Assembly: GCA_040285855.1 (NCBI GenBank)
Contig: JAUFOQ010000002.1
Span: forward strand, 1,302,001-1,366,000
DNA: 64,000 nucleotides
Reading direction: 5' to 3'
Source of the DNA: Eukaryota sp. GEM-RC1
Taxonomy: Eukaryota
A model generated the notes under the pieces. The model had not been told where the DNA came from. It saw only the letters and a program-made list of their open reading frames with translations, and searched no databases. Each line of letters opens with the position of its first letter. The first letter of the stretch is position 1. The translations under genes were made by a program, and so were the position numbers. Positions 3,989-58,034 of this stretch are shown in pieces.

Positions 3989-4007
3989 TTTTTGAGGTAG
4001 AGGTCAG

Positions 4008-5589
<1,582 letters not shown>

Positions 5590-6012: not shown

Positions 6013-8843
6013 TCAATTCAACAACAAATTACTTTTTACCCCCTTCCTCCTTATCGGACCAGTAGACAATGACCTCTTCTCACTCGATAGATTCAATTTA
6101 CTAGAGGAAACAGGGGGTAACAGTGGAGTGTACTTCGCACTCACAGGTTCAGACTCAATAGAATCATCTTCTGACTCTGATGAGTCATCAATATCATAAT
6201 CAAGTGCACGTAACCTAGCTCGAAGTTTTGAAATCTTCAACCTCAGTTTCGCTAAGTTATACGAATACTCCCTGGCATTCTTAATCAGTGCTTCATTAAG
6301 TGTTTCGACCTTCCTTCTTAGTGCTTCAACTTCAGCTGAATCAACTTCATCTTCCTTGGATTCAACTTCAAACGGATTACCATTAGAACCTTCACCTTGG
6401 ACAACCTTTATGTGACCCTCAAGCTTTTCAATCACCATTTGTTGACGTGTTAGAGCTTCTTTGAGTGCAGGCAGAACACCAGCACGGTCTTGCAGTTTCA
6501 GTACAGCTTGATTTTGAATTGAGTGAACTCTTTTGAGATCACTGTATTTCTTCTCGACTTGAGCTGTTCTAGAAGCAATAGAATGAAGTCGTGCGATTTC
6601 CTCACGAATCTCCTTGACAAACATGAAATCATTCGACACTTTCCCAGAAATAGCCATTGATTGCTTTGATTCCATCATCTTTTTGATTCAATCAAATCAT
6701 TCCGTTCAGAAATTACTATAGAAAGATCCAATTCAACTTTTTTCCGTACATTTGTTTCATTTACAAGATCAGTCCGAGTCTTATTATACTGTTCCATTAA
6801 CTTTGAATACTTGTTCTTAAGTATAGACAGATCCTCATGACTTTGATCCACCACAGCATCAGTTTCAACTGATTGGTCAATCATGTTGACGTTCTCCTCG
6901 CTAAACACGTGTGAACCACTATGAACGTACGGTGGCTCCTTCATAATAGAAGAAGTAGTCTTGAATACGTGTTCTTTTCTACTACTCCTGTATCATTCTC
7001 TGTATCTTTCTTCTCTTTCCTTTCTCCCTTTTCACTTCGATCTAACTTCTCCTTTCGTCTGTTTACTGATTCAGAAGGAGAAGGTTCGTTATAATCACGT
7101 TGTTGTTCTAGTCGGTCGACTTCTTCAACGAGCTTGTCAATGGCTTCTTCACTGTGACACATATTATCACAGTCAATGGGATGACCGTGACCCATATGGT
7201 CATCGTCATCATCATCATCGTGGAAATGATCAATCAAATCTGATGGACCTTTGATTATTGACCCTTTCTCTGCTTGAACAGAATCATCATCGTCATCATC
7301 CATATCCTCTTCTGCTGACGTGTCCTGAGATCCATCCAACTCTATCGAATAACAACTGGACAATTGGTGAATCCACTGAGCAGTTGTCCAACACCTAGCC
7401 TTGACTTTTAAAGAAAAGTTTGAATCTTCCAGTGACGAGAGCCTTGTGCTTAGTATGGTGGGTTTGAGTGAAGAAGGGTTAGGGAGGATAGACTCCAGGG
7501 CAAGGGAGAAGTTACGGTAGATGCTGAAGTCGAAGAAGGACGGATTGGAGCATGTGTAGAGGGAGACGTGGAGAATGGAGGCTGGGAGGGATAGTAGATC
7601 TTGGGGGATGGAAAAGTTGAAAGATTCGGAGAGGTCGGAAGAATCTGAAATTCTAAAAATCTTGGAAATTTGATCAGATACAGACATTTCACTTGACGAA
7701 TTTTTCAAAATTTGTTCAATTATTGAATCACCATCCTCTACCTTGGCTACAGGTTGAAAATGATCCTCTGGCTGAAAGTTTGGATTAATTGTATGACTTA
7801 CTGAATTAATTCCCCTCCCACTATTAAACTTTAACGAAACTACAGCAATAACAAGAGGATTCTCTTGTAAAACTGTCTGACAACATCCTACTAAATGTTG
7901 AAGGTCCAGTTGCAGCTTACATATCTTGGGATATTTCTTACTCAGAGTAAGCTCATAATCGGTACTAAACTCGTTCTGAACTGACAAGAAGACTCGAGAG
8001 TTACAGGAAGATCCATTAACCTGACTAAGACCAAGTGAAATGAAGAACCTTCGACCAGGTGGTAGGAGTCTGATGTCCATTTGAGAGCAGAAAAGCAACT
8101 TCCTAGATTGATCGTGGACAACACCGACAAAGAGCTCTTCCTGATTGACTATTTCATCAGTTGTGAGAGCCGCTTCCAGAAAGGTGGCGTATAGTGGTGA
8201 TGCGGTATTACGAATGACTTTAGTGGTGAGCTTGGTGGGAATACGTTCACGCAAGGACTTGGTAGACTTTAGAGTGATAAAGACATCTATGGGAGAAGAA
8301 GGGTGGTCAGGGGGAGTAGAAAGAGTCTCCAGAGTAGATGTACACGTGAGACATTAATGGAGAAGCATCAGTGAAAGGTTGGAGAGATTGAGTGGCGGAT
8401 AGTTGTTGAGAGTCATTGTTTGCATCTAGAGAGCCAGTGAAAAAGGCTATAGTGAGAGAGCCAATAGTTTGTTTTGAATTTGATCGCGATGATATGGGAA
8501 AAGTTTCTGAATACGGAAGTGAGGATGATAGAGAAGAAAGAATGGGTTTGAGAGGGATTGTCAGTGATCCAAGTACTTTTGCTTGCCCCTTCTTTCCCTC
8601 GGACGGAGAGGATAGAACAGTGAGAACATCGATCAATAGTTTGGTTTTAGCTGAGATAGGACCAGTGAAGCTGAAATGTCGATTGCGAAAGAGAGGATTT
8701 GTCGTATTATGAGAAACATCTGTGCGGAAGATTTGATGTGATGAGCTGTTCTTATCAGCGATCTTAAGAGATACAAAGTAGTTTAAAGACTCATTGAACT
8801 GTACATTATCTATAGAAACAGAGAAGTAATTAGAGATAGACAT
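6013..8843 (-). CDS. C2-domain plus coiled-coil protein, CCDC33-like
   Basis: Four consecutive minus-strand ORFs join at homopolymer indels (about 8320, 6975, 6680). N-terminal C2-like segments (FRTDVSHNTTNPLF) and a C-terminal coiled coil (LKEALTRQQMVIEKLE, LIKNAREYSYNLAKL) resemble CCDC33. Confidence 0.55.
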
Positions 8844-11100: not shown

Positions 11101-12671
11101 ATGAACCTGGACTATTCCTCTGACCTTTCTGCTTCTGCTGTGGATGATAGTCCGAGTTGTCGATCTCGCATTAACTCTATTGTCTCCCTGAACAATGATT
11201 TTGATCTTATCATCACCGAATCTCTACAGGAACATGAACCTAGCTCATCTCATTCTAGCTCTCATTCTGACATAAGTACTTGTGACACTCCCCTACCATC
11301 TTATTCCACAAAACCTATTTCTGACTTCAAAGCGCTGCTACAACTCTCGACTCCTGCAGCTATCCTTATGATGTTAACAATGATGCTTGGAATCACTGAC
11401 TCTATAATGATTGGTAACCGTTTGGGTACAGAAGCTCTTGCTGCTGTAGGAACGGTTCTTCACTTAATGCAAATGTCTCTTTTTATTCCTGTTACTGCTT
11501 CATTTGCTTTAGATGCCTTAGGAAACCAGGCAATTGGATCTAATAATTATAAAGCTGTTGGAATGTATGTTCAGCAAGCACTTATTGTTTCAGGTGTCCT
11601 GTCTCTAATTCCCTTGATTCTATGGACTTTTTCTTATCAACTGTTATTAGCAGCAGGTTTTTCCGATACTTTGGCTCAGAATGCAAGTGTTTACTTGAAA
11701 TCACAAATTTTTTCGATTCCTTTTTTCGTCATATTTAAAGTTATTGGAACAAAAGTCCTTGAAATTCAAGGCAAACTCTATCCACAAGCCATCTTCTTCT
11801 TTATCACAAACATCATGAACGTCATCACAAATTACCTCTTCCTGTGGGTATTCAACTTTGGTTTAAAAGGAGCTGCAATCTCAACTGGAATCTGTCGTAT
11901 ATGGCCTTTGTTGATGGTAGTTCTTTATCATAAAAAGTATAAAACTTTTGACAAGATTTGGAGCCCGTGGACAAAAGCCAACATTTCCATTCAAAACCTA
12001 AAGAAGTACTGTCGAATTGCACTTCCTGCTGTCTATTTCTTTGCAATTGAAGGCTCAGCTGTCAGTATGTGGTCTTTATTCGCTGGCAGAATGGGCGAAG
12101 TTGAAGCAGCTAGCCACACAGTCATCATGACGTCATCTGGTATCTCATATACTCTGGGCATAGGACTTTCAATTGCCCTGTCCATTAGAGTTGGTCAACT
12201 TACTGGACAAGGAGAAGCTGTGAGGGCAAGGAGGACTGCGAAGATGGGAATATCACTATCAGCTGGTATTATGGTCTTTTTTGCTCTTGTTTATGTCTCT
12301 CTACGAAGTTACTTACCTACTTTGTTTGTTGATGATGCTGAAGTCACTGAGGTCGCCAAGGATTTGTATATCTTTGCCGCCTTTTATCAACTTGCTATTG
12401 GAGTGAAGCTATCTGCTAGTGGTGTGGCAGAGGTTTAGGCCGTAATAAGATCACGGCGATTGTTGCATTTATTTGTTTTTATCTGATTTCTTTACCAGCT
12501 TCTCTGTTATTGTCTTTTGTATTTGGATATGGAATTCGTGGCCAATGGTTTGCTATTGTTGTTGCTTTGAATTGTGCAGCATCTTTGCTTTTATTCTTTG
12601 TTAGTAGATTTAACTTTCATGAAGAGGTTGAGCTTGCTAGAGAGAGAATTCAAGCCAGGAAAGTTGTTTAG
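11101..12671 (+). CDS. MATE (MatE) efflux transporter
   Basis: LGTEALAAVG and LSIRVGQLTGQG motifs, multiple TM helices. After a one-base indel at about 12426 it continues RGLGRNKITAIVAF... to TAG at 12669-12671. Confidence 0.9.
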
Positions 12672-12872
12672 TTTCTGAGGTTTTATTTCAGTTTTTATGA
12701 TGTCCTGAAGGTTTTTAATGCAGAATATCTTGGTCATCGATTAGTTAGTTTTTTATTTGCACTGTTCACTTGAACTTATTTTAATCCAGATTAAATGTTT
12801 TACGATACAATTTATACAAATTTACACACAATAACACTTTTTCGAACATTGAAAGAGTTATCTAAACTGCTA

Positions 12873-14147
12873 TTAAACATAACACTTAACAAAATCAGAA
12901 AATGAAGAATATCTAATGGCACACAAATGTCTAACCAATGCAGCATTTCCATAAGAAGAATTTGGTACTCCAACGGTATTATACTTAATGTAAGTTTTCA
13001 ACATCTTCTTGTCACTAGAAAGGTTCTTCCAAGCTTGGTAAACTCCATTAGCACTCAAATCAGAAACTTTAAACAATTCTCTAGCATCATGTTCTAACTC
13101 CCAATGATCAAAAAGTTCAGAATTAGCTTTTGTCAAATTCAGAAAAAATTGCTCATAATTTAAAATTACCCCACTGGTTCTGTTATAGTGATACAATCTT
13201 ACCCCAGGATTATTCCCAACAACAATAAGTTCTGAGTAATAAACCAACGAAGGAGAGATGAACAGTGGGATTCCAGGCTTCTGTAGACGTTCACTGAAAA
13301 CTAATCGTAGAGCTTGAGTATGTTCATGGCCTGAAAAGATTGCAGAAATCACATTGCACTCAATTCCCTTTTCAAATACCTCCAGCAGTTTGTCATTGAA
13401 CTTTGGTATTAGATTAGGAACTGGGGTGGCAACTGACTCAGTAACACCTAGAGGACAATGCATGAACACTAGTGCAACTCTATTGGTCTTCTTGAGATAC
13501 TCGATTTGTTCCTCAATCCAAACAAACTGATCACCAGGATCATCCATGTGAACTGTTTCAGGATTTGTTACGAAATAGTAAGCAGTGTTAAGTACAAGAA
13601 AAGACAGCGTTGGAGAATGATCAACTCTGTAATAGCCACCTTTAAGGAAGTTATCTCCTTGATCAAGAGGAATATGGTCTTTCCACAGAGGATATAAGTC
13701 CTGGAAAACGTAATCAGAGGTTTTGCCAAAATGGTTGACATTGACAACATCGTGGTTGCCAATGGTCCAAACGAAAGGAGTGGAAAACTGTTCAGTTATG
13801 TAGGATGTAAAGGATGTGGACATTTCCTTTAAACGACGTCGATTCCAGTCATTTTTTAAGCATGATGGAGGTAGGTCTCCCAGATAAGCTATGAAATCAG
13901 GATTTGGTTGAATGGACTTCATGTGTTTCACGGCGGATTCCACCAGAGTAAAAGGTGCAGAACAACGAGGATGACCAAAGAGACCAGCATCTCCTTCTCC
14001 TTCTATGCAGGATTCCTTTTCGTTGGAACCGACAATGTAATTCCATTGCCAGTGGACATCATTAATGGCCCAGAAAGTACCCACATCAGTAGCCAAAGCA
14101 GAAACAACACAAAAGTATATTAAGATGATGACAATCATGTGCCTCAT
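12873..14147 (-). CDS. Secreted acid sphingomyelinase-like metallophosphoesterase (SMPDL3-like), copy 1
   Basis: Signal peptide; DVH, GD, GNHD, H and GHEH calcineurin-like motifs; NNPGVRLYHY. Confidence 0.9.
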   Translation of the reverse strand: MRHMIVIILIYFCVVSALATDVGTFWAINDVHWQWNYIVGSNEKESCIEGEGDAGLFGHPRCSAPFTLVESAVKHMKSIQPNPDFIAYLGDLPPSCLKNDWNRRRLKEMSTSFTSYITEQFSTPFVWTIGNHDVVNVNHFGKTSDYVFQDLYPLWKDHIPLDQGDNFLKGGYYRVDHSPTLSFLVLNTAYYFVTNPETVHMDDPGDQFVWIEEQIEYLKKTNRVALVFMHCPLGVTESVATPVPNLIPKFNDKLLEVFEKGIECNVISAIFSGHEHTQALRLVFSERLQKPGIPLFISPSLVYYSELIVVGNNPGVRLYHYNRTSGVILNYEQFFLNLTKANSELFDHWELEHDARELFKVSDLSANGVYQAWKNLSSDKKMLKTYIKYNTVGVPNSSYGNAALVRHLCAIRYSSFSDFVKCYV

Positions 14148-15144
14148 ATGATTACCAAGAAAAGACACAATGAACGAAAAGATTATATATTGGCCTCATC
14201 TTGAAAGCCACTGATGTCATTTGATTTTTGTGTGTAGTTTTGTTCATGTCTGATCTAGTAGTAAATGGATTCAAAAATATTGTTGTTGGAGTGGAAGTTC
14301 ATCTACTTGTCAAAATCAGCTCCAATCAGTGATCGTCAAACAGCCGTTTTTCTGTTGATATCAAGGAAATGCCTGAATGAAACATCCCTTCTTTGAAATT
14401 TGACATGAAGAAAATCCAGAACGTGTTTTAAAACATTTGAAAATTTTGATTTTGCGGTTCATCATCTAAACTGGTCTGATGAAGAGTATCCTGGTTCCGC
14501 TTAATTTTCTATCAATTTAAGAGGAAGTTCCCTTGTGGCATTCAACAATCAGATCCCATCAGTGATTAGAAGTTCATCAGTAGACCACAATGATGTTACT
14601 TGATGCTAATGTACGCAACACAGGGCTGCTACACGTGTATCACACGGATGACGTTTTGCCACACCGTGTCTTTGTGTTAGACGTTTTTGTTGTGTGCGTC
14701 TTTATCCATGCTTTTTAACTTAAAAAAGTCAAAAGTGTATCTCTAAGTTGCATAATACTTTGCACAATCTTTCAAAATATGTTCAAGATATACACTGGAA
14801 ACAATTGGTGTTGCTTCTATCTTCATTCTTATGACTTTTATTAAGGAACAATACTTTATTACAAAAAGTATCACACAATCTGTGTGATCACATGTGTGTC
14901 ACACGGTTAGTGAATTTACCCCACTGTGTGTTTGTGTACCCTACTTTTTGCCCATACGATCTAGTAAATGACATTCAGTAGAATTGTGGGGATGAATTGA
15001 TCTTCTCAACTAATAGGTGCACTGTATACTGTTACAATAGTGCTGTTAGAGACCAAAAAATCTTTTACACTAATTTATACAAAATGCGGCTTCGAATAAT
15101 AAACGAACCCAAGGAAAGGTTTGCACTAAAGTGCTTGTTTGCTA

Positions 15145-16419
15145 TTACACATAACACTTAACAAAATCAGAGAATGAAGAATATCTAATAGCACACAAAT
15201 GTCTAACCAATGCAGCATTTCCATAAGAAGAATTTGGAACTCCAACAGTGTTATACTTAATGTAAGTTTTCAACATCTTCTTGTCACTAGAAAGGTTCTT
15301 CCAAGCTTGGTAAATTCCATTAGCACTCAGATCAGAAACTTTAAACAATTCTCTAGCATCATGTTCTAACTCCCAATGATCAGAAAGTTCAGAATTAGCT
15401 TTTGTCAAATTCAGAAAATATTGCTCATAATTTAAAATTACCCCACTGGTTCTGTTATAGTGATACAATCTTACCCCAGGATTATTCCCAACAACAATAA
15501 GTTCTGAGTAATATACTAATGAAGGAGAGATGAACAGTGGGATTCCAGGCTTCTGTAGACGTTCACTGAAAACTAATCGTAGAGCTTGAGTATGTTCATG
15601 ACCTGAAAAGATTGCAGAAATCACATTACACTCAATTCCCTTTTCAAATACCTGCACTAGTTTGTCATTGAACTTTGGTATTAGATTGGGAACTGGGGTG
15701 GCAACTGACTCAGTGACACCTAGAGGACAATGCATGAACACTAATGCAACTCTATTGGTCTTCTTGAGATACTCGATTTGTTCTTCAATCCAAACAAACT
15801 GATCACCAGGATCATCCATGTGAACTGTTTCAGGATTTGTCACGAAATAGTAAGCAGTGTTAAGTACAAGAAAAGACAGCGTTGGAGAATGATCAACTCT
15901 GTAATAGCCACCTTTAAGGAAGTTATCTCGTTGATCAAAAGGAATATGGTCTTTCCACAGAGGATATAAGTCGTGGAAAACGTAATCAGAGGTTTTGCCA
16001 AAATGGTTTAGTTTCACAACGTCGTGGTTACCGATGGTCCAAACGAATGGAGTGGAAAACTGTTCAGTTATGTAGGATGTAAAGGTTGTGGACATTTCCT
16101 TTAAACGATCCCGATTCCAGTCTTTTTTTAAGCCTGGTTCTTGAGGAGGAAGATCTCCCAGATATGCTATGAAATCAGGATTTGGTTGAATGGACTTCAT
16201 GTGTTTTACGGCAGATTCCACCAGAGTAAAAGGTGCAGAACATCGAGGCTGACCAAAGAGACCAGCATTACCGACTCCTTCTAAGCATGATTTCTTTTCA
16301 TTCGAGCCGACGATGTAATTCCATTGCCAATGGATATCATTAATGGCCCAAAAAGTACCCACATCAGTAGCAAAAGCAGAAATAGTGAAAAACAAAAGAA
16401 GAAAGAAGACGACGGGCAT
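15145..16419 (-). CDS. SMPDL3-like metallophosphoesterase, copy 2 (tandem paralog)
   Basis: Same motifs as copy 1; near-identical over the C-terminal two thirds. Confidence 0.9.
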   Translation of the reverse strand: MPVVFFLLLFFTISAFATDVGTFWAINDIHWQWNYIVGSNEKKSCLEGVGNAGLFGQPRCSAPFTLVESAVKHMKSIQPNPDFIAYLGDLPPQEPGLKKDWNRDRLKEMSTTFTSYITEQFSTPFVWTIGNHDVVKLNHFGKTSDYVFHDLYPLWKDHIPFDQRDNFLKGGYYRVDHSPTLSFLVLNTAYYFVTNPETVHMDDPGDQFVWIEEQIEYLKKTNRVALVFMHCPLGVTESVATPVPNLIPKFNDKLVQVFEKGIECNVISAIFSGHEHTQALRLVFSERLQKPGIPLFISPSLVYYSELIVVGNNPGVRLYHYNRTSGVILNYEQYFLNLTKANSELSDHWELEHDARELFKVSDLSANGIYQAWKNLSSDKKMLKTYIKYNTVGVPNSSYGNAALVRHLCAIRYSSFSDFVKCYV

Positions 16420-17099
16420 ATACTACTAGTAGTAGAAGACGTGATGGGTTGCAAAAATGTTCCAATTAGCCATCGATTAGCGTCTCTTCATGACTGATTG
16501 TCCCCAAAATTTTGAAGATGAACATGGTCGAGCATTGGATGAGTGGGAGTGATCAGAAGCAGAGTATCTGTTGTAGGGTACCAGTAGCTAGCAGCAGAAA
16601 CCCTACCAGATTTGGTTAAGTCCGAGGTGCTGTTTCATGTTCAATGTTGTGTGCTACTCTATCTTTATAAAGCCTTCTCAACATCAATCAAAACATTACA
16701 TAGATTTATAATTAAGCTGATCACAGGACAACAACTTAACTGCATATGAAATTCAGGACTGTCCATCAGGCGACGTTGAAGAAACTTGTTTAACTGATTC
16801 CTTTAGCTATAGAATAATCAAAAATACAACACTTTGACTAAGCCGATGAGAATAAACTGAAAACATAACCAGATTGATACCTCTAGACAAGAAGAACTTC
16901 AGTATAGCATTGAGCTTCTGGTGGTAGAAGTGATGAGGAAAAGACAAAAGTTTGTGGTTGAGATTATTTAACGATTGAGGAACAGATTCTAGTTGAAGCT
17001 CATACATCTTAAAACGCCGCTTCTTCACAACAATACATCTCAGTTAGGAATGGGGTGGGAATGGGAATCCAAATCTGCAGATTGCAATCGAGATTTGAC

Positions 17100-21999: not shown

Positions 22000-22782
22000 T
22001 TACCATGTCCTTTAACAAGTACAAGGGTCTGTTCCCTGTGAACTTAAGACTTTATGCTGGCATCAATGTGCATGTTGGACTATTATGTCTGCTGATTGTA
22101 ATACCCTTGAGATTCTTACTTTTTTGAGATCTAATGTCCATTCTTCTCACAATCTTGCGTTTCTACCTTTATTTGTCTTCCATAGGTTGCCTGTTTTTCA
22201 TTGGATTCAGACCCGCCATTTAGCACGAGTACTTCATCTTCCATCTGGATTTCAAAGAGGATGTTGCATCAGGTTCGCCACTTTGTACAAGACTACTTAT
22301 CCATCTTCTATTTTTAGGATTTTTTGCTCAAAGAAGGAGTATTTCCCTACCGTTCCAGAAACTCTTTCAATGTCTCTCGATAGATTCCCGACACAATCAG
22401 TTGATGATTTCATACTGCGTATCTATTGTTCCGTTCCATACAACTTTCTTTCGTCTGAATTGTTATTGCGTTGGTTTCTTAAGAACTTTGATTCAGCAGA
22501 CCCCCAACTCCTTCTCCTGCCGAAAAGGAATCCATTGATTTAATCTTGAGGACTGTTAAGAAAAGAAAAATACTCGCTCACTATGAACGGGTGAATCAAT
22601 TCATCACCGCGTTTGAAATGCTTGTTGAGCAATCACATGTATCGATCAGTATTGATCGTGATTCTTTTAAGAGTGATTTGAACACGTTTTTACAGCAACG
22701 TGATTATGATTCGATGGTAAATTCATCTGCGTTTATTTTTATGAAGAATACTTTCCAGCTAATTGACGAGTCTTCGCAGTGA
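22000..22782 (+). pseudogene. Repeated ORF, probably the N-terminal (zinc-finger) part of the CRE-like retrotransposon
   Basis: 22062-22600 is near-identical to the reverse complement of 37369-37908. Both copies precede same-strand CRE-like sequence. Degenerate Cys/His pattern. Confidence 0.5.
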
Positions 22783-23124
22783 ATTCAATGTTTCGGAATT
22801 TCAACAAACTATTACTGTAAAATGTAATCGGCGGATTTTTCGAACCTGTTCGAAGCATGTGAACAAGGACTGTCAAAAATATATTGCAAAATTGTAATAA
22901 TTGCAATATTGGATATTTGAGTATTGCAATGTGCAATAATTTCGCTTTTGAACAATACTTTATGTTCATTAAAAAACTACATGTAATGTTTTTCCAATTT
23001 TGTAAAAATTGAACAGTTCATGTACATAGAAACGTCATGCCGAAATCAATTTTTACTTTGAAATTTGCTTTGAAGAAACTCCAAAATCATTTATTATTAT
23101 ATTTTGAAAGTTTTTTTACAGTTC

Positions 23125-24000
23125 GTCTTAGCTTAGCTAAGGAAGAAAATATGCTTTCGCAAATTTTTCAATTCATTTAAAGGAGAGTTCTGTTGTAGCT
23201 TTAATTAATGAAATTCCACAAGTACGTGTATATGGTCTAATTTTAATGATCATCAATAAACCACAAAGAAATGAGCTTTTTCTTGGGATATATACTTTGC
23301 CAAAATGATCTTCAATGTAGCTGTGGTAAACAATTAACGTTTTCTCATTTGTCAAAATGTAATCGCTACATAACTTATCGAACGTGTATGCATGATGCTG
23401 TAAGAGATCAAATACATGCTATGTGTAAGTCTTACAAAATTGAGTCTATGTTGAACCAACTAATAATTGTAATGTCGAAAACCAGAACCAATTTTTTGAT
23501 AAACGGAGAGCAGATGTTGTTGTCCTTTCGTTTGCAGACAGATTGTTTGTTGTTGATGTAGTGCCAGTGGATGTTTGTATAAAGAGATCTTGAAAGAATG
23601 CTTACTCTAAAACTTCTCATTTAGACATTTCTGAACAAGTAAAACAGGATAAGTACAAAAAATCATTGATAGCTCTAAAACATGTAAAACATGTTGAATA
23701 CGAGTTCTGCCCTTTTGCTGTTTCAATTTACGCACGTTTAGGAAGTGCATTGAAACTTTTAAACGATTTCGGAAAAATTGTAAAAAATAGGATGAACAAA
23801 CGTTTTGATTATATGTTATGGATGAATCGTATCGTTTTTACTGTTTTTAAAACAGTTCCCCTAATCATCTCCAAAGCTTTATTAGCAGCGAGTTTCTTTT
23901 ATGAGGACAAAGCCGTTGTAATATTTGATAGCGACGGGTGTTGTTTTAATGGTATCAAATTTTAGTTGTTTGATCTACTAGTATTACATTTATAATAAAA
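23125..24000 (+). mobile_element. CRE-like non-LTR retrotransposon 3' portion (family A), decayed
   Basis: CSCGKQLTFSHLSKC zinc knuckle, HDAVRDQIHAMCKS, KRRADV (RLE) and FCPFAVSIYARLG. The 3' UTR matches 59430-59751 plus 60191-60225. Confidence 0.8.
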
Positions 24001-24392
24001 CTGTACTGTTATATTATTGCTAGTCAAACTTAAATCATTCAGCAATCTTTTTAAAAAACGATTGTAAACTGTACGATTTACACATTAGAAAAAATTGATC
24101 TTGAACTATACAATATACCTACTGTTCTATCAACCACTAAATTAATGAGTGGGTGAGATCTTCTCGAAAATTGTTTATTTACATTTACAAATTATATTAT
24201 TGGGAATATTACTGTGCCTTATGAAGCATCTCATAGTATAACGGTGGCCCATTCTTCATCATTAAGTACAAGTGTCGACTCAACTCTCAGCGATTCGAGA
24301 AAACAGTGTACTTCAGTGTTTACTATAGAATAAATGTGATAGTAATTGGAAAAAACAAATACAAATTGTATACAAATAATTATTAAACAAAA

Positions 24393-28837: not shown

Positions 28838-29423
28838 CTATCGTAGGTGTCCCAATACAAGCAAGTAAAAGTGTTTGCTTGTATCATTCTATTGCATTCA
28901 GGATGTTGAGCGAGTTATACTTCAATACAAAGTTTATTAAAATGAATTACAACGTATAGAGCTGTGAACGCACTTCATAGTGTCCACTGGGGTGCTTACG
29001 TGTTGTTGTTGCGGATTTTTGCCCGAAGAACTCGATGGAGTTATTGTATTGTTTGACATTTGTAAAATCAGAAGCACAAAATGGCCTATCAAAATCCAAA
29101 TTATGAATAGGCAATAGAATCCCTGTCAATAAAACTTTGCTCCTAAAGAGACAAATATTGTGTACTTGTAGAACAAATTAAAACACTGTTATTAAAGCAT
29201 GTGTCATATTAATGTATTGTTATAAATTTTTGTTCTATTTAATATACAGTGTACAAGTAGCATTACGAAATAGAGTATGTGATCCAGTAATATATCGAAA
29301 TCAAAGGTGTCGTCGCTTCACCGTATAATAGGGTCCCAATACAAGCAAGGTCCCAATACAAGCAACAAAATGTGTTTGCTTGTATAAGATATTAAGTTGC
29401 TTGTATTGGGACACCTACAATAG
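28838..29423. mobile_element. 586-bp non-autonomous TIR element with subterminal hairpins
   Basis: 27-bp TIR CTAT(C/T)GTAGGTGTCCCAATACAAGCAA with one mismatch. Extra GTCCCAATACAAGCAA copies at about 29333 and 29350. ATACAAGCAA...TTGCTTGTAT hairpins at both ends. Confidence 0.85.
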
Positions 29424-29935: not shown

Positions 29936-30039
29936 ATGACGAGAACAGTGCTACTGGTTTATTGATTAGAAAGAAAGACAATACAGTTATACAACAGAAA
30001 CTTGTGTTGAATTTTTATTGGATTTATGTCCAAGATTGA

Positions 30040-31954
30040 CTAGTCATTTTCTTCAGCTATTTCGTCTTCGATTAATTCTTGAACAACGTTTTGACCTCTC
30101 TGAAATGCCAGTGGACGAGGTAGCCCTCTCAATTCATGATCGAACAACTCTAATTGATTAAGAGCAGCAGAAATGTCTCTGTGCCAGACTTTCTCACATG
30201 CAGGGCATTTGAAGTGACGGTGATCGACTTTTCCATCTTCGAAGTATGTCTTTACATGGACCCTTTTGCAACAATAAGTCAGTTTGGAAGTTCTAAACTC
30301 ATCTCCCTTAGGATTCCAAACATTCATACGGGTCTGCAAAAATTTCAAAAATTTCTTGTTGGCAGACTTTACTTTTTGACGGGATGCAAAATCAGTTCCT
30401 CTTCCATACCAAATGAGAGCCCCCTGTGTGCCCTCAGCAGCTTGACGTATGGCATTTACGAAATTTTGATAGCGTCTTTGTTTTCTTTGGAAGAAATCAA
30501 AGCGATGACTTCGAAGTTTCATTAAAGATGATTTATCCAACTGTCGGTTAATAGGAGCAGTCACAGAATGGAAACCACCTCTTCCAATTCTGTCCAGATA
30601 AGTTAAAAAGCCATTTGCTGAATAAACATTGGGCGAATCGTTGGTATCAAGAAAATTAAATGGTTGTCTTGTTTTGCCTTTAGGAGCTAGCACTATTCCT
30701 GAAGATGCAGGATGTTGGTTTTCAATTCTCCATGCATAACCACACAAGTTTGAATGATTCGGGTCGATGGCCACTTTTAGGTATACACCGTCAGGGGCTA
30801 TGCCAATTTCTTGGGGCACTCGCTGCTTTTTTTTGTAAGTGAGACTTTACAAACATGATTTTGGTCTTCCTACCACATGTTTCCACTTCTTTCTTGGTCC
30901 TTCTGGTTCGAATTCTTTTTTCTTTCTTCGAAAACGTGAACATAACTTGTTTTCCGTTACTTTGGAGTGAGCACGATGGCCATTCTTCTTTGTTTTTATT
31001 AAAAAATTTGTAGGGATCAGTTTTGAGTTGATGAAGCTTCCTTTCAAAACCTGTTGTTCTTGGGCCTCGTTTCAACTCTTTCTTGTTTGTCAGAGTTGTC
31101 ATTCTTTGGATCAATCTATCTGAAAGAGTGATGAAACCAGGTGTGTATTTTTTGATTGGAGAAATTTTCAATTTTCGAAAGCTTTCTGGATGGAAGTTGT
31201 TCTCCATAAAGCTCTGTAATCTCAAGCAGTATTCAGCTACTAAGGCGGCGAACTCTTGAGTAATCTCAATGGCCTCAATCTCTTCACTTTGGTTGTTCTT
31301 TTCGTAAAAGTTAAGAAGATAGAGTTCACGATAATAGAAGTCACCCGATGCTTCAAAATACAGGCCTTTGACCACTTCATACCACTGTGCCCACCATTCG
31401 CTCAATGATTCTGGAATCGACGCATCCTCTATGTCATAAATCTTAACAAATGATTGAGGGTAAGGGCAGTCCAGTTCACGAGCTATCAAAAAATTTCGTC
31501 TCCAAGTAGGGAATAGCGAAGCTATCATTATTTTACAGTTAATAGCAAGCTTTCTACAACTATCACTTAGAATGTGGGAATGACATTGAGGGGGGATCTC
31601 TTTGGCTAAAAACAGTTGATAGAGTAATAGTGTCCAAAAATGTTTGGAAGATGGCGTTTTTAACAGCAGATTCAAAAGTTGTATCATAAGGAGATTCAAT
31701 AGGTCGTTCTTTTCTGTTACTGAGCCAGTTTTTCTTGGAGAAAATATCTGTAGCTGCTAACCAAAAATTTTGATTTGTAAGGGCAAAAGCCAAACGGGGA
31801 TAAGAGATTGTGAATTGTCGTACAAAAAGAGATGAATATCGCATAATAACGGAGGACGCATTTAAGTGACGACGGAACCACTTGATATTGGATTTAGGGA
31901 AAAGTGAAAGATACCAGCAGTAAGTGTTATAGTGTTGGGACTAATACAAGACAT
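30040..31954 (-). CDS. Fanzor1-type (eukaryotic TnpB) RNA-guided RuvC nuclease, about 637 aa reconstructed
   Basis: RuvC-I VAIDP, IWYG at the canonical-E position, alternative catalytic E in GDEFRTSK, Zn ribbon ...CC...CPAC, RuvC-III HRDISAALN, and C-terminal RPLAFQR. Reconstruction needs three homopolymer indels (about 31900, 31590, 30830). Confidence 0.88.
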
Positions 31955-32645
31955 TACAACTACAGTGTAATATGGAACAAAAATTGTATCTCTTCAAAGC
32001 AAAGGTTCGCAGGTTTCATGTAAAAATTTGAAAATTTAAAATTCCCTTTTCAAAAAACACAAGGACTAATACGCAACACGTAAAAAACTAAATTATTGTA
32101 TTGTCTTTAAAGCATTTAAAACAATTCCTATCCTTTAAAATATTTTTTGCAGTTTCTTAGCTTATTTCTAAAGGAGATACGCTACTGGAGAGCCGATACA
32201 TTGAATTACTGAACAAAAAGCAACAGTAGTTTTCATTTTGGGTGAATATCCCCATTTTACCAATTCTCCCACACACCCAATTCCCACAAACTCTTTTTAC
32301 TTATGGGATATACTTTTGGAATGCTTTGGGACTCAAGACTCGACATAACTCGATTTATTTTTTATCAACGAAAGAGTGAAGAGTGATCGATAGTGTCGAC
32401 ACTGAAGCAATTGTCTCAGAGAATGTCTAATCTTTTTTCTTCGTTATTTTTTTATTAAGGAAAGATAGATAATCCGGACGTCTAAGGGAATGTCTAATCT
32501 ATCTATCGTTGACTCAAGTCTGACGAAAAAGAAGTACATCCAACACAGTAGTTTTTCTTTATTATCACATCCTTAAATTTACTACACGCCAATGTATTCA
32601 TTGGTAAACAACAGTTATTCCAACACTTCAAGAATAAATACAAAA

Positions 32646-33700
32646 CTACAACTTTTTCTTTGGCATATTTCTAGGTGGTGTGTATGGTCGTTGAAGTGTT
32701 TGAGCGGAAGATCCATATATGTTTTTCCTTGTGGAAGTTGCTGGTCGAAGAACTTGAAACGAACACAGCAAGCTTTCATCAACACTCATCATTGCACCAG
32801 CATTATCAAACTCTCCACAATCTAAAGTAAGCAAAATGAGAGAAACAAACAATTTGGTGCAGAAAATATGGTGACTAACTGACGGTGGGCAAAAACTCAT
32901 ATCCATCCTCAACAACCTGATGAGCGCGGCAAATAAGGTCTAAATCTTGACTCTCAAGAAAGTGTTGTACGATATCAGCACCAAAAGTATAGGAGACACC
33001 TCTGTCGTTTTCTCCCCATCCAGCAATGTCTTTATCTGGATCTGACCATAGAAGATCACATAACATGCCAGTGTCTGGAACATCCGTGGGACGTGCTATT
33101 CTTCTAACTTGTTGAAGATCTTTTAGATCAGGTGATAATCCACCATGCATGCAAAAGATTTTTTCATCAATGACAGCAGCGATAGGTAAACAATTGAAAG
33201 TTTCTGTGAACATCTTCCATAACTTAACACCAGAGATATATCTACGTTTGCATTCATCATAAAAACCATAGATTCTATTAATGCTGGCGGATTCGTGGTT
33301 CCCTCTCAGTATAAAGAAGTTTTCTGGGTATTTGATCTTATAAGCCATCAACAAGCAGACAGTTTCAAGACTTTGCTTTCCTCTGTCAACGTAGTCACCA
33401 AGGAATAGATAATTGGCATCCGGTGGGAAACCTCCATATTCAAAAAGTCGAAGTAAATCAAAGTACTGGCCGTGGATATCGCCTGAGGTCACAAAGCAAG
33501 AAAAACTTACCACAGATTTTAATAGGAGCTTCAAGTTCAAGAAGAACAGGTTGGGCAAGAAAGATTTGTCGTGACTTAAGAAGTAGTCCACGAACTTCAT
33601 TGTCAGAAAGAGTTACTTGTTTACCAGGACGACTGTTACGGACTTCCAGTAACCGACGTATTATACTGTCAACATCGATGTCATAACGCTGAGCAGACAT
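32646..33700 (-). CDS. PPP1C: Protein phosphatase 1 catalytic subunit
   Basis: GDIHGQ, GDYVDRG, RGNHE and SAPNYC motifs. Introns at 33483-33510 and 32822-32850. One homopolymer indel at about 32891. Confidence 0.97.
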
Positions 33701-37294: not shown

Positions 37295-37908
37295 CTGACA
37301 CTACACCGACAACAAACAATTTGTCTGAAGAAAAAGAGACAACGACATCTGCCCTCCGTTTACCAAAAAATTGATTCAGCCGTTCATAGTGAGCGAGTAT
37401 TTTTCTTTTCTTAACAGTCCTCAAGATTAAATCAATGGACTCCTTTTCCTCAGGAGAAGGAGTTGGGGGGTCTGCTGGATCAAAGTTCTTAAGAAATCAT
37501 CTCAATAACAATTCAGACGAAAGAAAGTTGTATGGAACGGAACAATAGATACGCAGTATGAAATCATCAACTGATTGTGTCGGGAATCTATCGAGAGACA
37601 TTGAAAGAGTTTCTGGAACGGTAGGGAAATATTCCTTCGTTGAGCAAAAAATCCTAAAAATAGAAGAAGGATAAGTAGTCTTGTACAAAGTGGCGAACCT
37701 GATGCAACATCCTCTTTGAAATCCAGATGGAAGATGAAGTACTCGTGCTAAATGGCGGGTCTGAATCCAATGAAAAACAGGCAACCTATGAAAGACAAAT
37801 AAAGGTAGAAACGCAAGATTGTGAGAAGAATGGACATTAGATCTCAAAAAGTAAGAATCTCAAGGGTGTTACAATCAGCAGACATAATGGACCAACATGC
37901 ACATTGAT
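37295..37908 (-). mobile_element. Internally deleted CRE-like element (N-terminal ORF fused to RLE fragment)
   Basis: Copy of 22062-22600 carrying a premature TGA, joined at about 37365 directly to FGKRRADVVVS, which matches about 23490-23570. Confidence 0.65.
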
Positions 37909-40775: not shown

Positions 40776-43700
40776 ATGTCCCTTCTTGAGTTTGATAATG
40801 CTCTTCATCAGTTTAACTCTCTAAAGGCTCAGGACCCGCGTTTTGTAAAGTTTTCACATACTGTTTTTTCTGAAAATGGTCGAGAACTTGATCCCAATGT
40901 ACTGCCTCCAAAGGACTATGAGACTGTTGTTGGTGTCATCCTTGAACTCTTGTCTGCACTAACACCCTATTTTCATCTCCCTCAGGGCATTGAAATTGTT
41001 CGTTTTCTTATCAGACGTTATGAAATCACCAAGAAGCCTCATCTTGTGACCGCGCTAATCACCATGGCACTCCCTTACTTCGAAACCCAACTCTTCGCCA
41101 GTCTGATTGCCACATCTAACCTTGAAGACACCGTCTACTCCTTCCTCTCCGTTCCCTTCAACAAAGAGTCATCCCCTCCTCTCCGTGACTTCCTCTACAA
41201 ACACGCCAGTCGCTCTCTTCCTTTATTCAAACAAATGATGACGATCATCCACCCTGACCGAGATCCCTGTCGTGCTGCCCTCTCCTTCGCCATCGTAACT
41301 GCTGATAACGTCATCAAACTAGCCAAGGACGATGGCTTGGCTGAGATCACTCCTCTCCTACTTGAATGTCTTCGTAACAAGAACAAACCAGAATGCCAAG
41401 CTGCCTCCTGTGCCATCATCCTCTCAGGATTGGCTAATGTCAGTCCCAGTGTGGATTCTACTGCCCAGGACTATTGGTCAAAGGTTATTACTGCTGTTTT
41501 GAAACATTCAACACCCTTTACCGCCGAACTCAATGCAAAGATTTTAGTAATTGCAGCACAGAAGAAGCATATCTTAACACTGGGGAATAGAAATGTTCAG
41601 AGAATAGCAGAGTCTAAGTTAATTATTAGAACGTTGTTTAAACTGGCAAAAGATGTTGATGTGTCAGAATTATTCAAAATTTTAATTCCTCAATTTTTCA
41701 AAAGAAGTCACATCCCACTTTTTGAAGATCTTGTCAAAAAGTCTATTACTGAACTCGAAAGCTATCATTTAGAGACTGTAATCCCAGAACTTGCCGCTTA
41801 CCAAGCCTCTGCCAATCAAATCGTAAATCCCACTCATCACGTCACCGATGACGAGAATGCAGATCCCAATCTGGCAATCACTCATGAGGTTATTGACCGG
41901 TTTTCTACTATTTTAGCTGATTATGTTGAATCAGGAAACTATAGCGATGTGATTGAATTCCTTACTGAGCTCAATTCATCTACCTCTCTCCACTCATCCA
42001 CTTCAATCACAATGTCGTGTCTCTATAAGCTCTGCTTTCAATGTGAGAATCCCTTTCTATTCCTCTTGTCTTTCTCTTTTAGAATATTCAAGAGATTGTC
42101 TGGACACAAACAACATTCTGCTATTGATTTGATGCTGTTAACTTGTTTTATTAATGTATTCTCGATGGCAATCGGAAATCTGTCCAAAATCTTCAATTTT
42201 GATCTATTTGTTCCCATTGTTTTTCTAACACGTGTCGTAGTTCAAGTCCCTCACATTCATCACTTATGTTCTGAACTCATGGCCTTGATCTCGACTTCAA
42301 ACAACTCTCAAATCTCTCCTGAACAAGATCTTACTCCAGATATAGTTCTAGCTCAATTAGGTCTATGGAAGAAGTTTGTTCCAGGATTAGCTCCTAGTTT
42401 TTGTTCACTGGTTGTCTGTGCGATGATTACAACAATTGAATTACATCAGCCCTATCGTAAGTTCTCAGCTCCTGCTGCTAATGATGTTTTAGCATTGTTT
42501 AGTGAGTCAACTTCACTAGATTTTGTTAAGATTGTGGCTTCTGAATGGTTTTTAAAGTCATTTGAGAAGGATACGTCGTATTTTGTCAATTCTTTTATTC
42601 GAAGTATTCTCCAAAAGCCATTCATTCCATCAGATTTGATTGCTGACGTCATGGGATTCCTATTCGCTCAATACTCTCAAGAAACTTTTACTAATCTTCA
42701 GGAATTGGTAAGTGAAAATCTCACAGCTATTGGTGAAGATTCTTCTGTTGAGTCGTTAGCCTTTGGAGAGCTTTCCTTCGCAATCAAACTCCTATCATTT
42801 ATCACGTCATCAAAGCCAGAACTTCTTGCTCCTTTCTGGAGTGAAACTTCTGCTCTTTTGTTTAATGTAATCAGAGCTTTGTTGAAGGTCGGTCATCCCG
42901 TGGCTGATTTGATTGTTGCCTCTTGCCTGTCTCTGCTACCTTCCGCTTGTGAAACTGTCCCAGTCAGTTCTAATGATCTCAATTGCGTCATTTCATGCTG
43001 TGCCGATTCATCAATGATTGTCTCCTCAAATGCTCTCGATGCTTTAACCGGTTTAGGGACGTTTGGATCTTCAGAAGCTCTCGATGGTCTCTCACAAGCA
43101 CTGGCACAGTTTACTTCTGATGCACCAGTTTCAAATATTAAAAAATTGTGTCGTCGTGCAATTAGAATTTTGGTAGATAGTCGGAAGGTTACTCATGAGC
43201 AAGCATTCACTCAAATCGTTGACATTGCAGTCAACTTTCCCACAGCTGTACAGTGTTCTTTCTATTACGAATTAGTTGAAGGATTTGGGTCAGCATTACC
43301 ATTAGTCTATATCTTTTTCTACTTGTACAATCGATCAAGTACTGGACCCGAAGCGAAAGACGAGGAGAAGCTTTACACTGTCGTTTATGACGTTTTAGAC
43401 ACGTGTACCAACGCTATCAAATTGAACTTCATTTATCACTCACTTGTTTTCATGGACCCTAATGTTGATCTTGGCTTTGCTGATTACTCAAATGATAACT
43501 TCAGGTCTGCTTGCAAAGCTCTAGCCCAAGGAGTGTTGACTCTTACTAGGAGTTGTACTATCACTAATGATTGTAGAGAGATCTTTAGACAGGCTGTTAC
43601 TGTGTTAGTTCTCTATTCTGAAAGGAAGAAGTGGCAGTTTGTGGTAAAAACACTGTAGGGAATTAGCTTTTATTGTATCTTCGTCGCTTTTGTTTTCTGA

Positions 43701-45552: not shown

Positions 45553-47265
45553 CTATTGCTCAACATTTCCACTACGATCAAAGAAAGTAGTATGTAGAAC
45601 ATGATGAGCCTTCTCTGACAAGGGAGCGTCAAAGTAAGAGGAATAAAGCCTCTGAATAGATGGATTCTCATCGCAAACACGTAACGAACACTTCCTATCA
45701 GCACTATAAACAGACTGAATTCTCTTTTTAACAATATTTGGATCGTCGCTTTTAACAGAACCCCCACCTAGAATAAGTAAATAAAGAAAATCAAACCATT
45801 AATACAACCTCCACCACAAGACATCACTTCAATAAAATCGAACTTATCAGCGAGGTTAGGTTCCTGTAACAACTTCTTGGCGTGTCTTATTCCAGAACAA
45901 ACACCCACCTTGATCTCTCTTAACACTCCATCCACCTCCAGTTCAATCGTGGCATGTCTCAACCCACCTTCTCCTCTCACGCCAGCAAACTCCACAACTC
46001 CAAGTCTATTGTCAGTTAGTTTCTTAGAAACCAGACGGAGAGCAGACTCTAGAACACCTCCAGTAACAGAGAAGATCACACCACCGCCAGTTGATTCACC
46101 CATAGGATCATCAAAAGAGGAAGGTTCCAACTCATCAAAAGAGATTGATTGTTGTTCCATCATCTCAAACATTTCCCTTACAGTTAACACATAATCCATA
46201 CCAGGATCCCGCTCCTTAGTAAACGACTTCTTAGCTGAACATGGCATTATAGCAACAGACACTATATCCTTTGGATCCCTTCCAATGGCGTCAGTCATCC
46301 AAGTTTTTAAAACTCCTCCCAGCATGCCCATGGGGGATTTTTGCACTGGACAAATTGGGTATGAACTCAGGTTTGTGTTGTTCAACATAGTTTACCCACG
46401 CAGGACAACAAGAAGTGAATTGAGGCATTGCTACCTCTTCCCCAGACCATTTCTTGGAAAGTCTTTCAATCAGTTCGTGACCTTCCTCCATGATGGTCAG
46501 ATCAGCAGCAAACTGAGTATCATACACGTAATCAAAGCCCAATCGTCTGAGCAACGTCACCATCTTTCCTTCAGTTTCAGCGGAAGGTGGCACTCCAAAG
46601 GGCTCACCCATTTGAGTTCTGACTGTAGGGGCAGTTTGGACACAGACAACCTTAGAGGGGTCCTTCATGGCAGCCATCACGTCATCAATGTGGGAGAATT
46701 CCGAGATGGAAGAGGTTGGGCATACAACCGAGCAGGCACCACATCCGATACAACCAGAGACCTCCAGTGAGCATCCTGATTGAGTAATGATAGGCTTGAG
46801 GGTCCCTTTAGTTTTGTCATGCTTTAGAATATTCATGTCTTGAACATTGGAGCAAGCTCTGGTGCAACGACTGCATTCAATGCAAGAAGAAGGGTCGATT
46901 TTGATGCAGATGGTGGAGTCTTGAATAGAGATGGGATCTTCAGTAGAGGAGGTACGGGTGACTCTCTTTTTCTCCAGGCGCTCCAAAGCTTTTTGTTGAG
47001 CTGTTTTAACTTTGGGTGCTTGAGTGTCAACCACCATCCCAGATGAGAAAGCTGTTTTACAAGCGAGGCCGTTTTTGGGCTTGGCGTTTTCATCTACTTG
47101 AATTTGGACCATGCAAACACCGCAACTACCGACAAATTTAGTAGCAGGATGCCAGCAACGGCGGGGGATGTCTACACCACAATCGAAAGCGACATCAATA
47201 AGAGGTTGTCCTTCCACAGAGTCGGGAAGGTCATGAACAGTTCCATTAAGAGTAAGTTGTACCAT
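45553..47265 (-). CDS. hydA: [FeFe]-hydrogenase with N-terminal 2Fe-2S and 2[4Fe-4S] domains
   Basis: H-cluster motifs TSCCPAW, MPCSAKK and EVMSCGGGCINGGG; CxxCxxCxxxC ferredoxin motifs; ADLTIMEEG. Intron at 45768-45796 and homopolymer indel at about 46338. Confidence 0.93.
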
Positions 47266-48339: not shown

Positions 48340-50260
48340 TCTAATAATTGATGTCCATATTTCCTATTTGGAAATTCTTACCTTCCTTATCTTCATACTG
48401 TCTGCCAAGAGATGATAGAGCATTGGAAACAGAAGTCATCATATATTTGAAAATAGAGAATAGAATTCTATTTATCCAAAACCTAAGGTCAAAAATCCTA
48501 GATGTTATTTCTTTTAACATTAAGTATTACCAAGTTCTCAAGTAATGGTACATCAGATTTACCTAGATAATCGTAGAACGATACCATACACTTGTGTAAT
48601 TTGATTAATTAATGCCACATCAGAACTCTCCTTTAAATCAATTAAAAAATTAGCGAAAGCTGGATTCTTTTCCTTAACCGAGCTAAGACGAACTGTAAAA
48701 TCTAAACTTTCAAAAAATCGTCATCTTGATATCACGAGCTATGATTAACGGTAGAATGTATGATGATGGTAACTGTTAAAATCTCACATCGGATCATCCT
48801 GTTCAAAACAGTAATAATTAATTTTAGTCTGTCAAAAGTACAGTAACGGTACATGTACCGTACGCCTAAATCGCCATGGTACAGAACATTTGCGTTCCAA
48901 TGTTTCAAAGTCATGAAGTTTCGAGCAATTTTTTTTAGTTCTATTTACATTTATTCGAAAATAAAAAAAGATGATCTAATACTCAATGTCATCAAAACAA
49001 GATTCCTTCGAATCGAACCTTGTTGAAGCTTTGTCTTCATAAAACACACTTAGGGATAACAAAGCTTTTGAAATCATTGTGGGAACTGCCTTTAGAATCG
49101 TAAAGACAATTCGGTTCTGCCAAAAGAACGATCAATTATTTTGTTAGTTCTACGAGCTACAACCTTTGCAAATTCATCAAGGAACTTCAAGGCCAATTTG
49201 CCTAATCTACCATACTAGTATATGGAAATCGCAAATGGAACAAGTGAATAATCAACATGGACAATGTGTTTCAGGTCTTTCAAAGGATCAGTATACTTTC
49301 TTTGTTTGTTATTTTCAGCAATGTCTAAAGGAGAGATTTCCTTTGTAACAAACTTGTTACAACTTTTTTGTAAACATCCACTGAAACAACATCGATAACT
49401 GTCAGAGATTCAGAAGATGAAGGTATAATCAAGTCAGCACGTCTTTGCCCATAAGAATTTTCTTTTTTGGAATGTTGATTGATGTCAAGAGATCTCAGCA
49501 AAGGTTCAATAAAGGATTCAATTTTGTAAGATTTGCACATGGCATGTAGCTGATCGCGTACAGGGTCATGGATAGCAGATCGATAAGTTATGTAATGCGA
49601 ACATGAAAATGTATGAGATAACTTTACCAATTGTCCACATTTGCAGTAACAATCATTGGATAGATTATGAGGCCATAAAAAGCATTTTAAACGCATTGTA
49701 GTGGTCCACTGATGATCATCTAGTAACATTGCGGAATTTGATTGAGGAAAGCTGATGCAGAGCTATCCTGTAAATCTAACAGAAAATTGGCGAAAGTAGG
49801 ATTAGATTGTTTAGCCGAGCTAATGCGAACAACAAAATCCAAACTTTCAAAATGTTTCGAAAGATGATGCTGAAGCTTTTTTTAGAGCAAACCTTAAAGA
49901 AACCAAACTTCTTTCTGGGATATCCTGAATTTCTCTCGGAAAACAAGTGGACCAAACTTCTGGACTAAGTGAACTGACTTCTTTACGAAGACTATTCAAA
50001 TAGAAACTGTTTACAGATTCTAGAAGACACAATTTGTCAGGATATCTCTGACTAAATTCAAATATAAAGTTTTTTTCCCTCCATCAATGAAAGCAGCTTT
50101 TGTCCAGTATCGAGAACTTGTAAACCCTATTCCACCTAAATTGACATTAGAAAAAATATGATTTTTCAATAAATTCGGGAAATTACTTTCTAAACAAATC
50201 GACAACTCTCGAGAAATTTTAGGAACATTCAAATTTAGTTGATTATTGTTTATCGACTTC
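48340..50260 (-). mobile_element. Stack of CRE-like retrotransposon relics (family B 48929-50260 with A8 tail; other fragments 48340-48720)
   Basis: LGGIG, CYCKCGQLVKLSHTFSC, HDPVRDQL and RRADLII motifs. 48950-49370 matches 59755-60170. Confidence 0.85.
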
Positions 50261-51626: not shown

Positions 51627-51859
51627 GAAGTAAAAAGATAGATAAAGACAACTGGAATTTTTCTTCGAAAGTCTTCTCCAAAATGACGTTAGCTCTAAAT
51701 TGGTAAATTGGAGCTCAAAATTTGCCGGACTTCACCCCTAATCCAAATCTCTCATACGTTTTTTCCAATTATACATCATTCTTGTAAAGTATGGCTCAGT
51801 TCAACATTCCAGTCACTCATACTCTAAAAAATGATCTTAAATTGTAGATTACTGACATT

Positions 51860-52514
51860 AAACTTTATGAATACAGATAAAGTTACTACTGTAGTAGTTG
51901 TTAATTTTGGATTGACTGTTGTAAACAAATAGTTTCATCCAGCTCTGACCTGCCGTCTCACAAATTGAATCGTATTTGCCCACCCATGTACACAGATACC
52001 ACAGGAAGGTATACTTGTTGATAACAAAGCTACTAAAACTCGAGTAACCGAGAGTTTTAACAGAAATTATGAACTGGATTGATTGGGTAAAGATATTTTC
52101 AACAAAAAGTTTATAAAAAGTTATCACACGCCAAATGTTGCACTTAAATAAGGTCAACGATTTTCGACATACTGTACCAACTAAGAAAAAATATAATAGT
52201 ATATCTCATTGGACAGGATTTGTTAGTAAAAAAATGAAAATTAAGCCAAAATAGAAAAACCCACAAAACAACTGAATATGCGGGTTAAGAGCTCCAAACT
52301 ATCCATTTCAAATGTATGGGAAAGAGCTGTTTTGGAAGAAACTATACAGTACAGGTCAATGATAGTACTTAGCAAAAATTTGAATCTGTTGCAGCCAACA
52401 CTGACTGAACTGGAATTCAGTCTGGACTAGATATGTACATAAAATAAATCCCAAAAAAGTAATAGTGCAAAACTATCTGCCTGTTCAACAATCAAACTCA
52501 ACGTCCTCGTTTCT
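51860..52514. repeat. About 650-bp segment duplicated in inverted orientation at 57343-58000
   Basis: Direct sequence match; ORFs 51858-52157 (-) and 57713-57934 (+) are near-identical at their N-termini. Confidence 0.9.
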
Positions 52515-58000: not shown

Positions 58001-58034
58001 GTGATGTTAATAATCTGTATTTTAGAGTTCTTTC

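Follow-up and report, generated by a model that had tools for sequence, protein, structure and literature searches.

A probably full-length Fanzor1 coding region on a candidate non-autonomous transposon of Eukaryota sp. GEM-RC1

A stretch of 64,000 nucleotides from Eukaryota sp. GEM-RC1 (contig JAUFOQ010000002.1, positions 1,302,001 to 1,366,000; hereafter the window, whose own numbering is used throughout) probably harbors a full-length Fanzor1 coding region whose frame breaks are likely assembly errors, with a predicted omegaRNA-guided DNA endonuclease as its product and a candidate small non-autonomous transposon as its vehicle. The gene spans 31954-30040 on the minus strand and, read through with an X at each break, gives 637 codons and no stop. 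This agrees with the initial annotation, made from the sequence alone, which had joined frames into a single ORF of about 637 aa, and the segments so joined are matched by two homologues from Eukaryota sp. TZLM3-RCL, P0002 and the 977-aa P0003, which share a cluster. Both organism labels belong to Skoliomonas isolates, anaerobic metamonads, as described in PMC11603281. The gene had also been called hidden across four frames: there are four segments, whereas the frames number three.

All four coding segments lie on the minus strand. The first (31904-31954) holds the ATG and the first WED beta-strand (NTITLTA) and matches P0003 residues 325-346. It ends at an A4 run (31900-31903) that is one base short, a run across which homologues are continuous. 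The second (31596-31899) encodes REC helices, 45% identical to P0002 145-247, and is followed by a G6 run (31590-31595) that is one base long, or two short; removing one base restores a gapless P0003 register. REC, WED and a basic linker occupy the third segment (30835-31589; 43% identity to P0002 247-499), and the fourth (30040-30826; 56% identity to P0002) carries the RuvC domain, the zinc ribbon and the stop. Between these two lies either a slip in a T8 run (30827-30834) or a 28-nt GT..AG intron spanning that run (30823-30850), where splicing is placed by P0001, a public 539-aa gene model (label Eukaryota sp. GEM-RC1) that the homologue search returned as an identical match to the last segment. 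The three homopolymers stand exactly where the initial annotation had put them. Since P0003, a continuous protein of the sister protist with 48% identity, covers all four segments in order (combined tblastn E 9e-162), they constitute one gene. The start of P0022 approximately coincides with the window ATG, and the confident Fanzor fold in the P0003 model opens with strand 336-342, the one encoded by segment 1, so the window contains the complete nuclease core.

On indirect grounds it is fairly probable, as the initial annotation had also judged, that the organism carries an open reading frame and that the three breaks are assembly errors. Homologues cross each of them with no change of frame, all three fall in homopolymer runs, and their directions differ, the first lacking a base and the other two having one surplus base (or two missing). 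Of 49 columns without variation in seven other members, the read-through preserves 47, a smaller loss than in any other of the eight sequences tested. Host genes in the same window break in the same way, as the initial annotation had noted for essential ones: PP1 (32890-32895), thioredoxin reductase and MATE (12425-12435) each lack one base, while FeFe-hydrogenase (46340-46345) and Utp10 (43645-43652) have one extra and a C2-like protein (8305-8312) probably likewise, most of these one-base frameshifts lying at homopolymers. The two FeFe-hydrogenase halves match adjoining parts of one Pfam model; the other breaks (PP1, thioredoxin reductase, MATE, Utp10 and C2-like) are presumed from conserved motifs. 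As a separate observation, the thioredoxin reductase (approximately 4000-5589, minus strand) ends in G-N-C-TGA-G-stop after its one-base slip and, judging from this C terminus, is likely a selenoprotein.

The breaks may instead be genuine, produced by slippage in a solitary Fanzor1 copy that died recently, a young pseudogene; we consider this somewhat unlikely. True indels also prefer homopolymers, and a density of three breaks in 1.9 kb is about three times the host rate per kilobase: six breaks in approximately 23 kb of host coding sequence selected by hand give an expectation of 0.5 in the gene and a probability of 0.015 for at least three. The Fanzor1 gene is also about 3.5 times richer than host genes in homopolymers of at least five bases, and when counted per such run the expectation is 1.2-1.4 and the probability of three breaks 0.11-0.17. 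The window-gene subfamily has a single member on record at 90% identity, and an identical unbroken protein is absent from the homologue searches and the best 150 profile matches. Among the members listed for five sister-genome clusters, 5 of 15, 2 of 15, 7 of 9, 4 of 14 and 2 of 9 are full-length; fragments are thus the majority in four of the five, and decay or error is common in this Fanzor1 family because so many sister-genome copies are fragmentary. Against decay of the window copy stand the absence of any stop codon, the retention of nearly all invariant residues, the undamaged state of the candidate element ends and duplication described below, and the identical slips in essential host genes. 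Given such one-base frameshifts, gene models derived from the GEM-RC1 assembly will be split or contain false introns.

A variant of the assembly-error reading, overlapping with it and in our view unlikely, holds that the gene is intact and that only the first two breaks are assembly errors, the third being a genuine 28-nt intron. The GT..AG stretch restores the frame as assembled, its length is close to that of host introns (about 28-31 nt), P0001 uses it, and Fanzors do acquire introns (PMC10530073). However, it is A-rich whereas most host introns are T-rich, its donor GTAAAG is unlike the GTAAGT and GTTTGT of window introns, and splicing would leave a linker of 29 residues compared to approximately 40 in P0003 and 38 in the unspliced reading. 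A host-like GTTTGT donor near this break can never restore the frame, by simple arithmetic, and no GT..AG pair of fitting length exists at breaks 1 and 2.

If the read-through is taken as the protein, its last segment contains every motif that the initial annotation had listed (VAIDP, IWYG, GDEFRTSK, TYCC, CPAC and HRDISAALN). RuvC-I reads VAIDPN, with the aspartate codon at 30765 followed by proline and the asparagine at 30759 (D-P-N). In Fanzors the RuvC-I aspartate is followed by proline, near exclusively as DPG (Yoon 2023; Jiang 2023). The canonical RuvC-II glutamate position is a family-invariant glycine (IWYG, 30405) that aligns with VMGD of SpuFz1, and the alternative glutamate lies 35 residues further on, in GDEFRTSK (E at 30300), aligned with SpuFz1 LDEYKTS. 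RuvC-III is HRDISAALN (D at 30177). Replacement of the RuvC-II glutamate by G or P and an alternative glutamate just ahead of the zinc ribbon are published Fanzor hallmarks; the same descriptions give D or N at RuvC-III and a four-ligand TNB zinc ribbon that is common though not universal. In SpuFz1 the magnesium ligands are D383, N385, E541 and D606 (PMC10432273), and at sequence level all four (D, N, E, D) are present in the window protein. The WED domain has SNG at 30961, a variant of the TDG motif described for Fanzor1 (PMC10711439), with TNG, SNG or TDG in relatives. The predicted zinc ribbon comprises TYCC (30279) and CPAC (30207), the first canonical cysteine being missing; family-wide, the residue at E+7 is T or V, that at E+9 an invariant C and that at E+10 C or H.

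Assignment to Fanzor1, also proposed by the initial annotation, is borne out by profiles, fold and motifs. The last segment matches the Pfam Cas12f1-like TNB family (32.5 bits against a cut-off of 26.3). A profile of only ten family members retrieves 640 proteins at E ≤0.001 among 1.84 billion, and its best match among solved structures is SpuFz1, weakly (E 0.022), aligned from RuvC-II to RuvC-III. Once widened by 118 sequences, the profile returns SpuFz1 at 6e-80, PpFz1 at 1e-60, GtFz1 at 2e-59 and Fanzor2 at 2.5e-10, values which, like both structural models below, derive from alignments rich in distant Fanzor1-like proteins and are not independent of those. The P0001 model (pLDDT 82) has Fanzor1 structures as its seven best Foldseek matches, SpuFz1 first (E 4.5e-10); by VIA-align its top rows tie with Cas12o1 at Z of about 14, with 437-453 residues aligned compared to 295. 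The P0003 model matches GtFz1 (Guillardia theta) over its whole length, GtFz1 2-670 to P0003 334-944 (Z 19.9, rmsd 6.8, 479 aligned residues), with TnpB at Z 11.4 and Fanzor2 at Z 10.3. The models also show the large REC and WED regions typical of Fanzor1: alignments to Fanzor1 structures span 404-479 residues, those to Fanzor2 178-307.

The initial annotation had treated the rearranged RuvC, together with the long N-terminal extension, as defining Fanzors. The rearrangement is there, but by itself it does not define them, because some prokaryotic TnpBs share it; it is the fold as a whole that carries the assignment to Fanzor1. A Fanzor2 or IS607 identity was rejected given the length of 637 aa, the weaker fold match and the lack of a serine-recombinase TnpA ORF in the flanks, as was a canonical TnpB identity, given DPN at RuvC-I and G at the canonical glutamate position. 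The best TnpB tblastn match to the gene reaches E 0.1-0.3, and a phmmer search of the PDB with only the RuvC segment returned no match. A quick tree covered 53 RuvC regions, 8 of the initial 61 rows having been dropped, and in it a long branch with 99% support sets the eight family rows apart from the rest; the two TnpB rows are themselves long branches and the tree, built without labelled Fanzor references, does not give the clade's position among Fanzor1 subfamilies. The neighbours of the locus, PP1 and enolase among them, are eukaryotic genes with introns. Taken together with the modelled folds, these results support a divergent Fanzor1 in a separate clade of anaerobic protists. Scans for related loci gave 198 pattern matches in metagenome contigs and 12 in viral contigs, none of them confirmed.

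Among characterized systems, SpuFz1 of Spizellomyces punctatus (PDB 8GKH, 9CEU-9CEZ) is alike in size, in D-P-N at RuvC-I and RD at RuvC-III, in the DE(Y/F)xTS alternative glutamate and C-terminal RPxxFxR, and in having its right repeat soon after the stop (PMC10432273). The structural alignment gives only 12-14% identity, however, and the first zinc pair is CxxC in SpuFz1 and TYCC here; the SpuFz1 repeats are 30 bp long compared to candidate repeats of 17 bp in the window element, which has a 4-bp duplication and a single copy on record. Identity to GtFz1 and to PpFz1 of Parasitella parasitica (Z 14.3 to the P0001 model) is 14-15%, and RuvC-III has N in GtFz1 (PMC11423790) but D in the window protein. 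SfAV-type non-autonomous elements, as described in PMC10711439, carry a Fanzor1 alone between terminal inverted repeats (TIRs) with a short target-site duplication (TSD), and their RNA extends approximately 15 nt past the duplication; the likeness is one of description, the window ends being candidates from one copy known from DNA alone. Fanzor2 (ApmFz2, PDB 9B0L) and the TnpBs of IS607 or IS200/IS605 have the RuvC and zinc-ribbon core in common with the window protein, and Fanzor2 and some TnpBs also the alternative glutamate (PMC10530073, PMC10711439), yet their matches are far weaker; the window protein has a larger REC region and no TnpA beside its gene.

The gene, and nothing else, lies within a candidate non-autonomous DNA transposon of 2135 bp (29974-32108, minus strand), whose ends we infer from one copy. 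Its candidate left terminal inverted repeat (32092-32108) lies 138 nt ahead of the ATG and the right one (29974-29990) 50 nt past the stop, with the 12 terminal bases exact and 15 of 17 matching overall. Flush with them are the candidate target-site duplications CTTT, on the 5′ side at 32109-32112, where by analogy to other Fanzor1s it would serve as the core of the target-adjacent motif (TAM), and on the 3′ side at 29970-29973. When the 692-nt upstream spacer was compared with the 300 nt past the stop, this repeat was the sole inverted match scoring at least 9. In a shuffle test framed after the repeat had been noticed, an equal repeat arose in 12 of 300 shuffles and a repeat with duplication in 3 of 300. 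Neither the element nor its adjoining flanks contain a recognizable transposase, and the plus-strand open frames downstream matched no Pfam family.

A predicted omegaRNA would occupy 29955-30069 on the minus strand, with its scaffold at 30069-29970 and a 15-nt guide at 29969-29955. Within it the last ten codons base-pair with the right repeat, which closes a multibranch structure in the MFE and centroid predictions alike, an arrangement also known for Fanzor1 RNAs (PMC10711439, section 27); at z -0.8 to -1.0, however, the predicted scaffold is no more stable than shuffled sequence. Seven 146-nt windows around the 3′ end fold no better than shuffles, and Rfam returned for the omegaRNA region a chance microRNA match only (E 0.93). 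The candidate 17-bp TIRs and flush CTTT duplication predict, on the model of other Fanzor1s, the omegaRNA, guide and TAM of the element.

Chance formation of the repeat would leave an intact but domesticated or stationary Fanzor outside any mobile element, which could have a host function in DNA or RNA binding. The single copy on record, the lack of a nearby transposase, the 4% chance rate of the repeat alone and the non-significant RNA fold all fit such a scenario; we nevertheless regard it as very unlikely, as every catalytic residue is retained, the nearest relatives occur in many copies (families of 24 and 56 gene models), and a flush duplication is typical of insertion.

The window contains further repeats, recorded here in their own right. 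A MITE-like stretch of 586 bp (28838-29423), situated 550 nt past the Fanzor element, has inverted ends of 32 nt and repeats its end motif internally. Repeat copies scattered over 22016-24100, 37295-37908, 48350-49880 and 58850-60190 contain broken ORFs, match no Pfam family and resemble fragments of a non-LTR retrotransposon. Positions 1-1476 form a tandem array of approximately ten copies with a 147-nt period, and a long inverted repeat pair (51840-52514 and 57343-58029) encloses about 4.8 kb of host-like genes. A phosphoesterase gene, putatively acid-sphingomyelinase-like by its motifs, is tandemly duplicated at 12868-16422.

A mobile Fanzor1 element with these ends would work as follows. 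Its transcript would start in the last codons, cross the right repeat and take in the CTTT duplication, these forming the scaffold as in other Fanzor1s, and the next approximately 15 host bases past the 3′ duplication would be the guide, by analogy to SpuFz1 and SfAV. The Fanzor1 protein would recognize a CTTT-containing TAM together with the guide-matching flank, two sequences that would adjoin only once the element has excised. Cutting of this empty site, followed by repair off the sister chromatid, would restore the element, as proposed by analogy to TnpB. Since no transposase was found in the element, one would have to be supplied in trans. According to the review PMC13565253, empty-site cutting and restoration by gene conversion are shown for bacterial systems only. 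RNA-guided DNA cutting by the window protein is accordingly a prediction by analogy, and intact motifs do not guarantee activity, since one algal Fanzor1 showed no cleavage in vitro (PMC10530073).

Relatives are numerous in the sister protist: TZLM3-RCL has related clusters of 24, 56, 10, 14, 9 and 4 gene models, TZLM1-RC has single related gene models, and GEM-RC1 itself has a second subfamily, including the continuous 596-aa model P0206. Some TZLM3-RCL proteins, known from their gene models alone, carry additional domains. P0003 and P0006 consist of a leader, the motif GDIEKNPGP, a Ulp1-type protease, a linker and the Fanzor, in this order. The protease is above the Pfam C48 cut-off, matches Ulp1 in the PDB (E 4e-4) and has the H, D and C residues in place. 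The motif, present in 5 of 15 listed members of the P0003 family, is a canonical 2A-like sequence fitting the published 2A consensus D(V/I)ExNPG-P. P0212 (1323 aa), of a separate DPG-type Fanzor1 family together with P0210 and P0208, has a leader, GDVEPNPGM, an EXO1-like nuclease (E 3e-38), a linker and the Fanzor. The GDVEPNPGM motif, found in 3 of 9 members, ends in M and may not skip because the final proline is missing. Judging from the order of the parts, skipping at a 2A-like motif would free the leader alone, and the enzyme and Fanzor would stay fused.

The window gene has neither a Ulp1 nor an EXO1 addition, and nothing upstream of it matches the 2A motif or Ulp1 domain found in P0003. 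We speculate that it represents the minimal type within a metamonad Fanzor1 radiation not yet described, where host enzymes were captured in two separate lineages behind a ribosome-skipping peptide of the 2A type: a Ulp1-type protease in the P0003 family, its closest relative, and an EXO1 resection nuclease in the P0212 family. The fusions would steer the protein's own break to homologous recombination, and so to transposon restoration. As a whole this scenario is rather doubtful.

Fanzor1 is a described family; what is new here is the candidate element ends with their duplication, the separate clade, its odd zinc ribbon and the predicted sister-genome fusions. The literature searched, in its main texts, returned no report of a Fanzor in metamonads or Skoliomonas (supplementary catalogues could list them) and nothing relevant on a Fanzor fused to Ulp1, a 2A peptide or an exonuclease, and the main texts of the 2A surveys PMC12846837 and bioRxiv 10.64898/2026.06.17.732966 do not mention Fanzor. 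Fanzor1 nucleases are compact RNA-guided editors whose host role is still mostly inferred from bacterial TnpB. The locus adds to them a long-branch clade whose zinc ribbon is altered, and its predicted ends, guide and TAM can be tested. In importance the relatives outweigh the window gene itself: as P0206, P0020, P0198 and P0003 are unbroken, the family can be assayed even if the window copy is dead, and the EXO1-Fanzor fusion, if true, would give a direct handle on restorative homing by recombination in eukaryotes.
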